This document shows positions 228 to 32,559 of a DNA stretch of 64,000 nt, piece after piece (the first letter of the stretch is position 1; the number at the start of each line of letters is the position of its first letter). The translations under genes and the position numbers were made by a program. The stretch is from positions 1 through 64,000 of IMG/VR virus record IMGVR_UViG_3300034019_000950; one strand, 5' to 3'. Source of the stretch: a virus. The notes beneath the pieces were generated by a model, which was not told the DNA's origin, ran no database searches, and worked only from the letters and a program-made list of their open reading frames with translations.

Positions 228-257
228 TTTACAGCCTAACCGCCCCCTTGTTACGCT
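228..257 (+). promoter_or_regulatory. early sigma70-like promoter with TAAC-N9-GTTA dyad
   Basis: TTTACA-18bp-TACGCT; TAAC 237-240, GTTA 250-253; same architecture recurs about 10 times upstream of + strand genes. Confidence 0.7.
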
Positions 258-342
258 GCTGGCATGCAGGGCAGGCACCGGGCCGGCCGGCATAGGGGGG
301 CAACCCCCACCACCACAGCAGCAGCAGCAGGGTACAACCACA

Positions 343-1023
343 ATGGCCACCACCACCACCACCCCCGTCGCCACCACCACCACCACCCCCGCCGCCGCCG
401 CCACGGGCAAGGGCAAGGGCAAGGGCAAGGGCACCACCACCCCGGCCGCCACCAAGGCCAAGGCCGCCCGCGCCGCCGCCGCCACCCCGGCCCCGGCCCC
501 GGTTGCCGCCACCCCGGCCCCGGCCCCTGTGGCGGCCCCGGCCCCGGTGGACAGCCTGTTCTCGGCCCTGGCCCAGCTGGACACCCCCCCGGCCGCCACC
601 ACCCCCGCCACCACCCCCGCCACCACCACCCCGGTCGAGCAGGGCGGGTGGGCCACGGCCGCCGACTGGTCCGCCGCCACGGCCGCCTGGGCGCTGCTGG
701 CGCAGGTGGAAAATTCCGTCGCCGCCGCCACGGCCGCCCCGGCCGCCCCGGCCGCCCCCAAGGCGGCCCGGTGGGCGCGCAACCCCGGCGCCGGCACGGT
801 GGGCCAGCTGGCCGCCCTTATTGCGGCGGCGGGGGGGGGTGACACTGTCGTTCTCGACGCAGCGCTGCTGGCGGCCCACAACATTGCTGCCACGTGGCTG
901 AAAAACACCCCCGCCTTTACCCAGGCCGACGGGGTCCGCAACGTGGCTGCCCTGCAGTGCGGCTACAAGGTTGCTGCGTTCAAGCGCGGTGTGGCTATCA
1001 CCCTGGTGCGCGTGGCTGCGTAG
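343..1023 (+). CDS. hypothetical protein, Ala/Thr/Pro/Lys low-complexity N-terminus and globular C-terminus
   Basis: 226 aa ORF directly downstream of the conserved promoter; GC3-biased codons; C-terminal half has normal amino-acid complexity. Confidence 0.7.
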   Translation: MATTTTTPVATTTTTPAAAATGKGKGKGKGTTTPAATKAKAARAAAATPAPAPVAATPAPAPVAAPAPVDSLFSALAQLDTPPAATTPATTPATTTPVEQGGWATAADWSAATAAWALLAQVENSVAAATAAPAAPAAPKAARWARNPGAGTVGQLAALIAAAGGGDTVVLDAALLAAHNIAATWLKNTPAFTQADGVRNVAALQCGYKVAAFKRGVAITLVRVAA

Positions 1024-1149
1024 CCGCTGCACGGGTGGGGGGCGGCACGTAGCGCCCCCCAGCCCACCCCCACCTGCCCGCCCACCTGCCCGCCCGCTGC
1101 CTGCCCGGCTGCGCGGCGGGCCGCGCCTTTTGGCCCTGCCCGGCCGGGC

Positions 1150-3751
1150 TGCGCGGGGCCGGTGCACGGGGGGTGCACGGGGGGTGCACGGGCCGGGGCG
1201 CCTGCGGGGGGCGCGGGGCGCGGGGCACGGTGGGCGCGCCCACCCCCTGCTGCGCGCCGGGGCACCGGGGCGGGGTGGGCACGGTGCGCGGGGTGGGCAC
1301 GGTGCGCGGTGCCGGTGCGCGGGGGCCACGTGCGGCACGTGCGGCACGTGCGGCACGGGGGGGGCACGGGGGGCACGTGCGGCACGGTGCGCGGGCTGGC
1401 GCGGTGCGGGGCGCACGCTGGCGGGGCCACGTGCGGCAAGGGCCGCCACAGGCACAACGGGCAGCCTGTGGCGTGCGGGCGCCCACCCCTACCGTGTACC
1501 GGGCAGGCTGCCCGTTGTGCCTGCTACGGGCTGCACGGGGGGTGCATACCAGGGAGCAACCCTTGCCGCACGGGCTACGGGGGGTGGTGCAAGCTGGGCA
1601 CGGTGCGGACGGTGCGGACGGTGCGGACGGGAGCACGAGAGGCACCGTCAGCACGTGCGGCACCGGGAGGGGCACGGTCAGCACGTGCGGCACGGTGGAC
1701 GCGGTGAGCACGGTGCGGACGTTGGAGACGGGCTGGTGCAGGGTGGACACGGTGAACACGGAGCACGAGACACGGGCTGGTGCAGGGTGGACACGGTGCA
1801 CGGTGGGCACGGGACACGAGACACGGTGGGCACGGTGCACGGCGGACACGGTGCACGGTGCACGGTGGACGGTGGACGCGGTGCACGATGGACACGGTGG
1901 ACACCGGGGACACGGTGGGCACGGCGGACACGGTGCAGACGGTGGGCAGGATGGACACGGTGCAGACGGTGGGCACGGTGAGCACCGGGGACACGGTGCA
2001 AGGTGCAGACGGCGGACGCGATGGACGCGGTGCGGACGGTGGACACGACGCGGACGGTGGGCAGGATGGACACGGTGGGCACCGGGGACAACGGAGGCAC
2101 CGGGGACACGGTGGGCACGGTGGGCACGGTGGGCACGGGACACGGTGCAAGGTGCAGACGGTGGGCACGGTGGGCACGGTGCAAGGTGCAGACGGTGGAC
2201 ACGATGCACGATGGACACGGTGGGCACGGTGGACACGAGACACGGTGGACGCGGTGCAAGGTGCGGACGGTGGGCACGGTGCGCACCGGGGACACGGTGC
2301 ACGATGGACGCGGTGCGGACGGTGGGCAGGATGGACGCGGTGCAAGGTGCGGACGGTGGGCACCGGGGACACGGTGGGCGCCAGGGGCACGGTCAACATG
2401 TGAGACGCGATGGACGCAGTGCGCGCGGGGTGGACGGTGGACACGGGGCACAGTGGACACGGGGTACGGTGGACGCGGTGCTGGATGGACGCGGTGTGGA
2501 GGGCAGACACGATGGACGCGGTGAGCACGAGACACGGTGGGCACGATGGGGACGGAGCACGGGGCACAGTGGACACGGGGTACGGGGCACAGTGCGGACG
2601 ATGGACACGGGGCACGGGGCACGGTGCGGGATGGACACGGTGCGGGATGGACGCGGTGTGGACACGGGGTACGGTGGACACGGGGTACGGTGGACACGGG
2701 GTACGGTGGACACGGGGTACGGTGCGGACGATGGACACGGGGCAGGATGGAGATGGTGAGGACGGTGAGGACCGTGTGGACCGGCTGATGCACGATGGAC
2801 ACGTGGCACGATGGACGCGGTGTGGACGGCAGACACGATGGACGCGGTGCGGGATGGACACGGTGGACGCGGTGCACGGTGGACGCGGTGTACGGTGTGG
2901 ACGGTGGACACGGGGCAGGATGGTGAGGACCGTGTGGACCGGCCGATACACGATGGACACGGGGCAGGATGGACAAGGGGCAGGATGGACAAGGGGCAGG
3001 ATGGACGCGGTGTAGACGGTGGACACGGGCTGATGCAGGGTGGGGACGTGCGGCACCGGAGGCACCGGAGACACGGTGCAAGCTGGACACGCTGCATGCA
3101 CGATGGACACGGTGCAAGCTGGACACGGTGCACGGGCCACGGTGGACACGGTCCAAGCTGGACACGGTGCATGCACGATGGACACGGTGCAAGGCGCACG
3201 ATCGACGCGGTGTGGATGGCGGACACGGGGCAGGATGGACACGGTGCACGGTGCGCACGGTCAGCACGTGCAGCACGATGGACACGGGGCAGGATGGACA
3301 CGGGACAGGATGGACGCGGTGTAGACGGTGTGGACGGTGGGCACGGTGCAAGCTGGGCACGTGCGGCACCGGAGACACGGTGCACGGTGGACACGGTGCA
3401 AGCTGGACACGGTGTATGATCAGCACGGTGCAAGGTGGACACGGTGCACGGTGGGCACGGTGGGCGCGTGCGGCACCGGGGACAACGGAGGCGCCGGGGG
3501 GGCATCGACTGTAAGGGGACCCGACGCGCCTTACTTCCTCCGATGCGCTGTTCGCCATCTCCGATGCGCGGGGTGTGCTCATGCGGATCGTGCGGCATCC
3601 GGCGCCGGCATCAGCGAGGGGCTGCGCCGCGCACCCTACCCGGCACCGTGCACCCTACCCGGCACCGTGCACCCCTTGCACCGTGCACCCTACCCGGCAC
3701 CGTGCACCCCTTGCACCGTGCACCCCTTGCACCCTACCCGGCCGGGCCGGT
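1150..3751. repeat. non-coding simple-repeat array of 7-9 bp units
   Basis: Shuffled units GGTGGACAC, GGTGGGCAC, GATGGACAC, GGTGCAC, GGTGCGGAC; G-rich top strand to ~3480, then an inverted C-rich block (GCACCGTGCACCCC) at 3630-3740. Confidence 0.9.
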
Positions 3752-3861
3752 GAGGGGGTGTGCTTCGCCTGTTGCGGGCCGGTCCTACACTTGCTCTCGC
3801 CGCAACAAGGGCGGCCCGGCGCATGTTTTAGGAAAATACAGTAAAAGTGTGCGGCTACAGG

Positions 3862-31999: not shown

Positions 32000-32006
32000 G
32001 TGATTG

Positions 32007-32034
32007 TTGCGCATAACTGCCTGCATGTTAGTAT
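32007..32034 (+). promoter_or_regulatory. early promoter with TAAC-N9-GTTA dyad
   Basis: TAAC 32014-32017, GTTA 32027-32030, TGTTAGTAT; GA-less SD-like AAGGGGG. Confidence 0.7.
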
Positions 32035-32054
32035 GGTGGTGCAAGGGGGCCACC

Positions 32055-32393
32055 ATGATTGACTACAAACAGGCAGTAAGTGGGGAACAGCGTGCGGCTT
32101 GTGCGAGGTTGCAGGCCGACCTGCAGTTAGAGCTGAGCGCACTGCCTAAGCAGGCAAAGTGGCACGAGCGCATCGCCTACAACAACGCAATCGACTGGCT
32201 CGATAGCGTCATTCAACATGGCGCATACGGTTGCCAGCTGTGCTTTACGAAGCATCCGGTCGTGTTGCGTCTTGCTGCGCATCATGGAGTGCCGGTAGCG
32301 CCCGCCCCGCGTCATGCCACGACTGATGATGTGCGTAGGTTGCGGGAAGGCATCGCGCTGACAGAAAGGGTGCGTCCTAACCTGCGCGCATAG
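32055..32393 (+). CDS. hypothetical protein
   Basis: ATG downstream of promoter and SD-like sequence. Confidence 0.6.
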   Translation: MIDYKQAVSGEQRAACARLQADLQLELSALPKQAKWHERIAYNNAIDWLDSVIQHGAYGCQLCFTKHPVVLRLAAHHGVPVAPAPRHATTDDVRRLREGIALTERVRPNLRA

Positions 32394-32559
32394 GGGCGCG
32401 CAGGGGCGCGTAGGGGCGCGTAGGGGCCTGTAACGGGGCGCATAGGGTGCCCATACGCGCCAGCACTGGCAACGCATGGCCGGTGCGTGCACAGGGCTAA
32501 CACCCTACAATATAACGGCAGCGCAACACGGTACAGCAAACAGTAAGGCAGATCAAAAC

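Follow-up and report, generated by a model that had tools for sequence, protein, structure and literature searches.

Predicted host-sigma promoters with a shared 17-bp dyad, and their depletion of GA and TC in one genome of a freshwater phage clade

Results

The genome and its relatives

We analysed the first 64 kb (64,000 nucleotides, hereafter the window) of a 79,355-bp phage genome of 63.9% G+C, IMG/VR record IMGVR_UViG_3300034019_000950 (G0), in which the dyad TAAC-N9-GTTA recurs ahead of genes as part of a promoter family that we call class I. Gene calls and family scans delimit a + strand arm (1–35.8 kb, + strand) that carries small genes of unknown function, a MoxR ATPase, a VWA protein, sugar-nucleotide enzymes, a sigma factor of the extracytoplasmic function (ECF) type, a helicase, an exonuclease, a primase-helicase, a serine recombinase, a dUTPase and a modification operon. 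The - strand arm runs from 79 to 36 kb and carries small genes, then packaging, head and tail genes. Using the primase-helicase, we recovered related IMG/VR contigs at 82–90% identity and two at 53–59%. The related genomes used here are G1 to G5 (G001 to G005): G1 (a complete record, 70% G+C), G3, G4 and G5 form a five-genome clade with G0, and G2 is a more distant relative (59% identity in the primase-helicase). More distant phages of 46–50% G+C, the low-GC relatives, were reached through homologs of the protein encoded at 13968–14300. G0 is present in many lake-water metagenomes, and the clade is uncultured and freshwater. When 44 kb of the window were compared with GenBank phages by megablast there was no match, the G0 primase is less than 30% identical to that of every listed phage, and a search of the genome for tRNA genes as a hint of the host found none.

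A recurrent dyad heads the genes of the + strand arm

The window contains ten exact copies of TAAC-N9-GTTA, against 0.14 expected from dinucleotide shuffles and 0.04 expected from k-mer frequencies, and no other 4-N-4 dyad of the G0 genome comes near it in over-representation. Nine of the ten are intergenic, lie in the + arm and head + strand genes. The tenth, at 50633–50649 inside the - strand gene 50423–50692, has no -35 element, is not conserved in relatives, and is either a chance occurrence or a lone site. Allowing up to one mismatch brings the count to 14 (the ten exact copies among them) against 4.7 expected, so that one-mismatch copies are not enriched in number; all four of them are intergenic, at 13437 and 18555 and, on the - arm, at 73462 and 74969. 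At the orthologous places relatives have canonical or variant sites that back the copies at 13437 (TACC) and 18555 (TTAC), and on this comparative evidence we take both copies to be real family members. Four relatives carry 12 (G1), 5, 9 and 9 dyads, the reversed-pattern control gave zero, and G2 has zero dyads. Scans of viral and genome contigs with the fuller pattern TTGC-N6-TAACCG-N7-GTTA (14 fixed bases) returned single scattered matches in unrelated taxa, at chance level, and no clue to the host.

Eleven promoters of the window, all on the + strand, share one layout. The left-most, P237 (228–257), has the -35 TTTACA, its dyad at 237–253 and a -10 TACGCT with TG, and it heads the gene 343–1023. 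At 3862–3891 the -35 TTGCGC, the dyad (3871–3887) and the -10 TACGCT are followed directly by a hydrophobic micro-open reading frame (micro-ORF) of 24 codons (MNNALDIALVLNQLLAVSLFFLGL, 3948–4022), and then by the DUF6744-like gene 4137–5189. The promoter at 5314–5343 (-35 TTGCAA, dyad 5323–5339, TG-extended -10 TACGCT; ortholog in G1, G3, G4 and G5) heads the gene of the MoxR-type ATPase (5379–6506), and that at 6584–6613 (-35 TTGCAC, dyad 6593–6609) heads the gene of the VWA protein (6639–8102), which has the ribosome site AAGGGGGG. A terminator-like hairpin (6539–6553) precedes the latter promoter, and some other sites also directly follow such hairpins. Farther along are the promoter at 11351–11380 (-35 TTGCAC, dyad 11360–11376), which heads 11422–11631, and the promoter at 12272–12301 (-35 TTGACT, 18-bp spacer, dyad 12281–12297, -10 TACACT), the only member of the family found by a generic sigma-70 scan, as TTGACT-18-TACACT. 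The variant at 13437–13457 reads TACC-N9-GTTA with the extended -10 TGTTATACT and heads the operon of the sigma factor and an XRE-like protein. It is followed by the promoter at 14838–14866 (-35 TTGCAC, 17-bp spacer, dyad 14846–14862; heads 14890–15375) and by the variant TTAC-N9-GTTA at 18545–18575, which heads a PD-(D/E)XK exonuclease gene (18620–20047) and has the canonical TAAC at the orthologous place in G3. The promoter at 24705–24734 (-35 TTGCAA, dyad 24714–24730) heads the serine recombinase gene (24761–25504) and is conserved behind the primase gene in relatives, and the promoter at 32007–32034 (-35 TTGCGC, 16-bp spacer, dyad 32014–32030, -10 TAGTAT) heads 32055–32393, with the ribosome site AAGGGGG. 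Beyond the window, - strand class I variants at genome positions 78474–78490 and 73462–73478 head the small-gene block of the right end; the former is a near-copy of the 18555 promoter with zero GA/TC from -58 to +15, and in the latter TTGACA directly abuts TAACCGG.

A preliminary description of the window, made from its letters, had proposed such a family, and its shared layout, its enrichment and its presence in relatives bear this out. The nine exact dyads listed there all lie where they had been placed, the -35 hexamers are as described (TTTACA, TTGCGC, TTGCAA, TTGCAC and TTGACT), AAGGGGG-type ribosome sites do precede two genes (6639 and 32055), and the variants at 13437 and 18555 have orthologous sites in relatives. 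A third variant, on the + strand at 32498–32514, has the letters TAAC-N9-TATA as reported and lies inside a 176-nt island free of GA and TC, and its membership is doubtful: its right arm has two mismatches, its -10 is shifted and it is without a -35. The exact sites had also been said to lie just upstream of + strand genes, which holds at 30–110 nt 5' of a + strand start with the exception of 3871, where the micro-ORF comes first.

Class I promoters resemble those read by the host primary sigma

Promoter positions are counted from a predicted start site. In alignments of 41–46 oriented sites from G0 and relatives, the consensus consists of an A/T tract, ccTTGCGcg, two bases, TAACcGc, five to six bases, (C/G)(G/T)GTTAc, about eight bases and GG.GTCAGCAG. 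The A/T-rich tract lies about 25 nt 5' of TAAC, near -52, and resembles an UP element. One of cTTGCA, TTGCGC or TTTACA stands three bases 5' of TAAC in the aligned G0 sites; the distance from TTGC to TAAC is 7 to 9, and that from TAAC to GTTA is always 9. The -10 is TAnnnT starting from the TA of GTTA in seven of the nine exact sites, the hexamers are 16–18 bp apart (mode 18), and six of the nine exact sites, as well as 13437, have a TG separated from the -10 hexamer by a single base. The promoters of the low-GC relatives have TTGnnn and then TAAC-N9-G(G/T)TATTAT, TATAAT or TATACT. Because these relatives read TGnTATAAT, the right arm can be understood as the G of an extended -10 TG, a free base and the TA of the -10, in agreement with the overlap of arm and -10 proposed earlier. 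At orthologous places G2 has TTGATT or TTGCGT, 17 bp and then TATAAC. The canonical TATAAT of the low-GC relatives, together with these G2 elements, points to promoters of the host primary sigma, and it is as primary-sigma promoters with predicted starts that we classify class I.

Other promoter types were considered. MerR-type activation by binding in the spacer would need a spacer of 19–20 bp, and the spacers here are 16–18 bp; about 55 proteins compared with Pfam, PHROGs and NCBIfam gave no helix-turn-helix (HTH), MerR or RNA polymerase match. A sigma-54 reading (TGGCAC-N5-TTGCA), judged by eye, fits 11360 alone and was rejected.

The left arm, the mirrored variants and the sigma/XRE-like operon

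The left arm TAAC(CG) lies in the class I spacer at -27 to -24, a stretch in which holoenzymes of the sigma-70 type do not contact specific bases. Even so, the arms are invariant in 46 sites, and TAAC keeps a fixed distance from the -10. The 17-bp two-fold symmetric site as a whole covers -27 to -11. The variation of one arm is the mirror image of that of the other, the left reading TA(A/C)C and the right G(T/G)TA, though the free base of TGn is unconstrained. All five genomes of the clade have exactly one TACC promoter, always upstream of the sigma operon, and all other sites have TAAC. The mirrored variants and the confinement of TACC to the sigma operon promoter favour an operator for a dimeric phage regulator, and the span from -27 to -11 suggests that this regulator is most likely a repressor.

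The operon behind the TACC promoter (+ strand) encodes a phage ECF-type sigma factor of 157 aa (13498–13971; Sigma70_r2), which matches TIGR02937 (sigma70-ECF) over its full length with an E value of 3.5e-7, below the curated cut-off. The start of the next gene (13968–14300, +), which encodes the XRE-like HTH protein of 110 aa, overlaps the sigma stop. This protein has the invariant segment RSKDLAALLG.RPQ..SQWK.G. Its AlphaFold2 model (predicted local distance difference test score 82) has only Cro/CI-XRE HTH proteins as structural neighbours, with Z scores of 8.5 for Aca2, 7.2 for ClgR and 6.9 for lambda cI, and with C-proteins and HipB also among them (Z 6–8.5 overall). The 17-bp dyad is most likely the operator of a dimeric phage regulator, for which the XRE-like protein is the best candidate.

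GA and TC are depleted from class I promoters in G0

We counted GA/TC in 73-nt windows spanning -58 to +15. The eleven G0 class I promoters contain 1, 0, 0, 0, 0, 8, 1, 1, 0, 3 and 0 GA/TC, a mean of 1.27 against 7.08 in random windows; six of the eleven have zero, for which the probability is 0.025 per random window, and P237 has zero to one. The 36 promoters of four relatives contain 2–9 GA/TC each and none has zero, with means equal to those of their own genomes, and six G0 late promoters contain 5–8 each, with GA and TC within their boxes. AA/TT and TA are enriched in the G0 class I windows, so the loss of GA/TC does not reflect a shortage of A or T. In seven of the eleven sites the GA/TC-free run starts at -59 to -65, at the GAA that opens the A/T tract, and the runs stop at +2 to +30, apart from that of P237, which reaches +105. 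The exceptions to depletion are the promoters at 12281 and 32014. The substitutions can be followed site by site: the start region GTCAGCAG of the relatives becomes GTGCAAG in G0, and the AGGAGG that precedes the VWA and recombinase genes in relatives becomes AAGGGGGG and GGGG. The depletion is real and is limited to G0 and to its class I promoters.

The preliminary description had also viewed these promoters as poor in GA, which is strongly so for G0 class I and is not so for the relatives or for the G0 late promoters. It went on to explain GA-less -35 and Shine-Dalgarno elements by DNA modification, and neither explanation is supported. TTGCG also occurs in relatives that are without the modification operon and tolerate GA/TC, and the TTGCR form of the -35 is hence ancestral. 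GA-less Shine-Dalgarno sequences are not a rule: they precede three promoter-proximal genes inside islands, and most genes keep GGAG. A ribosome site, moreover, acts in RNA and not in DNA. The statement that only the 12272 promoter contains GA is correct for the -35 hexamers and fails for the whole windows, where 12281 and 32014 both contain GA/TC.

A candidate thymine hypermodification operon

A candidate thymine hypermodification operon (27022–31999, +; PF02195, PF12851, PF13671/PF18751 and PF18724) encodes, in order, a ParB-like protein, a TET/JBP dioxygenase, a P-loop kinase, a protein of unknown function, a pentein-like protein and an amino-acid:DNA transferase (AADT). The dioxygenase operon is absent from G1 and G3, and G4 has only the dioxygenase (78% identity) and the ParB-like gene in common with G0. 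The slot 3' of the ParB-like gene is variable. It holds the TET/kinase/pentein/AADT cassette in G0; a TET protein, a TET-associated glycosyltransferase, an APH-like kinase and a HAD protein in G4 (L040:6595-9865, - strand); and FolE, QueD and QueC, which represent 7-deazaguanine chemistry, in G3 (L039:5015-6890, + strand). Published phage thymine dioxygenases work post-replicatively, in dinucleotide contexts (PMC13229309, 2026); one of them prefers NTC, and a ParB-dependent subclass is linked to P-loop kinases and AADTs (PMC13229309).

A second promoter class on the late arm

Late-arm intergenic regions share a different element, GTTC-N18-(c)GATAC(a)gT, conserved at orthologous places in G1 and G5. 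Examples of this class II promoter (GTTC-N18-GATAC) on the - strand are at 56342–56376, which is conserved in G1 and G5 and contains GA and TC, and at 51237–51271 in the late arm; more class II-like sites were seen on the same strand at about 60510–60523, 51960–51975 and 50390–50401. Class II is probably read by the phage ECF-type sigma factor.

Genome organisation

In G1 and G5 every gene lies on one strand, the late block followed by the early block. In G0 the late block has the opposite orientation to the early one, either by a true inversion or as an assembly artefact. The order of two promoter-bounded gene blocks, 4137–8102 and 8255–11332, is swapped in G1, G3 and G5, and the repeated promoters may have served as recombination seams between them. 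The end of the window at 1–200 is very G-rich. About 2.8 kb at 1024–3870 consist of short GC-rich repeats, of the types GGTGCACGG and GGACACGGTG and oriented both ways, and the gene calls within this region (1888–2403 and 2512–3015) are probably spurious. A further 1.4 kb, 15743–17131, is without a confident gene call; a - strand ORF of 500 codons at 15365–16867 has no family match, and just its last 125 codons are conserved in relatives. The top dyad of G2, ATTGTC-N6-GACAAT, belongs to a tandem iteron array near one end of that genome and is not a promoter element; the iteron-like array, at 73.5–73.8 kb (L037), consists of about a dozen tandem copies of an 18-bp palindrome, ATTGTCTGATTCGACAA(T/G).

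Discussion

The explanation that best accommodates these observations, to which we assign a probability of roughly 0.55, combines host-sigma promoters, an operator within each of them and avoidance of a modification in TC context. At least eleven class I promoters, one for each transcription unit of the + arm, would be read by the host primary sigma; the units headed in this way comprise unknown early genes, MoxR/VWA, replication genes, the recombinase and the modification operon. Host polymerase would first fire all class I promoters. The operon behind the TACC promoter would then supply the XRE-like repressor, and binding of this regulator to the 17-bp site would block RNA polymerase and shut class I off. 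The sigma factor, co-transcribed with the XRE-like gene, would switch on the GTTC-N18-GATAC late promoters. The GA/TC-free islands of G0 class I would reflect avoidance of TC-context thymine hypermodification by the ParB/dioxygenase/kinase/AADT operon.

Several observations weigh against the operator part of this scheme. The XRE-like protein has no significant HTH-family sequence match in Pfam, PHROG or NCBIfam, a profile search of PDB sequences with it gave E values of 0.5–1.1 only, and it matches its structural neighbours at middling Z scores. Symmetry inside the dyad is partial, with G at position 6 in 85% of sites and C at position 12 in 48%, and the -10 region fully explains the right arm, so that a factor is needed for the left arm alone. 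G2 has no dyad yet has a near-identical recognition helix (SPQSCSQWKTG against R/KPQ..SQWKTG), and three of its promoters share TAGGATT just 3' of the -35; L288 keeps the recognition helix but has just two TACC-type sites. An alternative that we consider unlikely but worth stating is that TAAC is a positive element: an activator encoded by phage or host would bind at -27 to -24, at a distance of 11 bp from the downstream -10, these weak promoters would depend on it to fire, and the palindrome would be incidental. A comparison is the MotA box of phage T4, which is read during sigma appropriation. Conservation is much stronger in the left half-site, TAACCG, than in the inner right half, most sites of the low-GC relatives read GGTA and so break perfect symmetry, and the high-GC relatives often have a poor -10 (TACACC, TAGCAG) lacking TG, where help may be needed; the TACC promoter of the sigma/XRE operon could then be an activator-independent first promoter. 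However, the site is centred at -19, between the core elements and over them, where repressors classically act, and a good -35 TTGC is kept at normal spacing, unlike in MotA-type promoters. The arm variants are also mirror images (A/C on the left, T/G on the right), and the left-most promoter, P237, has the layout of all the others. Reading of class I by a phage ECF-type sigma in place of the host primary sigma appears improbable. The phage does encode a sigma factor, conservation from -60 to +10 is unusually tight over 46 sites, and ECF -10 elements often contain GTT. Yet ECF promoters have an AAC-to-GTT spacing of about 16–17, against a gap of 9 here and about 23 bp from TAAC to the GTC of the start region; the low-GC relatives have a canonical TGnTATAAT at the same place, the sigma gene itself lies behind a class I variant, and the GTTC-N18-GATAC of the late arm suits an alternative sigma better. 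Most improbable of all is a DNA hairpin or cruciform promoter, as in the early promoters of phage N4, or an RNA stem, despite the inverted repeat near the start site: the arms are just 4 bp with a 9-nt loop, the inner positions form complementary pairs in 14, 20, 17 and 15 cases against 17, 20, 17 and 15 expected and thus do not covary, the dyad lies upstream of the predicted start and would hence be untranscribed, and no virion RNA polymerase homolog was found among the large proteins scanned. An operator within host-sigma promoters remains the reading that we prefer. The preliminary description had spoken of a single phage repressor regulon with early promoters; a single-regulator regulon is plausible from the mirrored arms, the TACC distribution and the XRE-type fold, and the words repressor and early describe predicted roles.

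That G0 hypermodifies T in TC, and that TC/GA has been purged from about -60 to +20 at host-sigma promoters, precisely the DNA to be read by host polymerase and its regulator, while the cores of the late promoters, predicted to depend on the phage sigma, keep GA/TC, we put forward as a tentative proposal, at somewhat below even odds. The published NTC-preferring enzyme makes a link between depletion and operon plausible, and a TC-specific thymine adduct would explain why TC/GA is the sole missing T-context amid TT, TG and TA. The purge may plausibly, then, be caused by TC-context modification by the operon. Several points count against it. The depletion is seen in one genome, and G4 is undepleted although its dioxygenase is 78% and its ParB-like protein 81% identical to those of G0, so that the link to modification drawn in the preliminary description is not borne out by the comparison. 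Loci around AADT homologs in unrelated phages contain no islands free of any T-containing dinucleotide, and a ParB-dependent enzyme prefers NTG/NTA and not NTC (PMC13229309). On a 3.9-kb contig, the gene of a 62% identical AADT is followed by a single GA/TC-free stretch of 76 nt, too slight to serve as evidence. Promoters free of GA/TC for reasons unrelated to modification, such as a nuclease or defence system of host or phage acting at GA/TC sites or a compositional quirk of non-coding DNA, form an alternative that we judge a little less probable still. In its favour, GA/TC is under-used throughout the clade, further stretches of G0, non-coding and in some cases coding, are also free of GA/TC, other phages with an AADT are without islands, and G4, with its close dioxygenase homolog, is not depleted. 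On the other side, the depletion is confined to class I and spares the late promoters, the depleted span matches the DNA covered by RNA polymerase, and the depletion goes together with the acquisition of a cassette whose class of enzyme is known to act in dinucleotide contexts that include TC.

The arrangement has parallels in several known systems. The early promoters of the Streptomyces phage phiC31 reportedly carry conserved 17-bp inverted repeats bound by the c repressor. Like that high-GC siphophage, G0 has many near-identical intergenic promoters, predicted to be early, with a 17-bp repeat each. Unlike in phiC31, the repeat of G0 is placed inside a primary-sigma-type promoter, between its -35 and its -10. 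The proteins of the two phages show no sequence relationship, G0 has no evident lysogeny module, and the single repressor that is a feature of phiC31 has as its counterpart a candidate regulator. The predicted small HTH fold and the 17-bp symmetric site over the core promoter recall Cro/CI systems (lambda, P22, 434, C-proteins and Aca), whereas here each of at least 11 promoters has a single site and there is no tripartite switch, the protein has no significant HTH_3 sequence match, and its gene is partnered with a sigma factor. In phage P1 (C1) and mycobacteriophage L5 (gp71, which binds stoperators) one repressor serves many dispersed sites, comparable to the more than ten sites at operon heads and the candidate single genome-wide regulator here; the P1 and L5 sites are asymmetric, and those of L5 often lie within transcribed regions, whereas the present sites are symmetric and fixed to the -10. 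Control of the phiEco32 type uses the host sigma for early genes and a phage ECF-like sigma for late ones. G0 likewise has a group-4-like phage sigma and two promoter classes, each on its own block of genes, with a different promoter consensus and different proteins and with classes assigned by prediction. The adjacency of ParB-like, TET/JBP, P-loop kinase and AADT genes matches the gene set in which phage thymine dioxygenases (5mYOX), with ParB activators, feed kinase/AADT hypermodification (PMC13229309; PMC8989533); unlike in the 5mYOX literature that we found, regulatory DNA here has been purged of the candidate target context. A limited literature search found no description of promoter-level avoidance of a phage's own modification motif.

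A family of promoters with an operator is ordinary phage control, and the unusual part is the purge of GA/TC specific to one genome and one promoter class. Sister phages with normal GA/TC in the same promoters provide a natural comparison with G0, which has gained the cassette and is depleted at its host-sigma promoters only. If modification is the cause, bulky thymine adducts would interfere with the host transcription machinery, phages would adapt regulatory DNA to their own modification, and the context specificity of new DNA-modifying enzymes could be predicted from sequence alone. Bare sequence would then reveal both the specificity of a modification and the footprint of the polymerase, in a prokaryotic-virus counterpart of modification-free promoter islands. 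For this freshwater clade, the outcome is a testable regulon of eleven promoters with one candidate regulator, together with one phage sigma and a second class of promoter.

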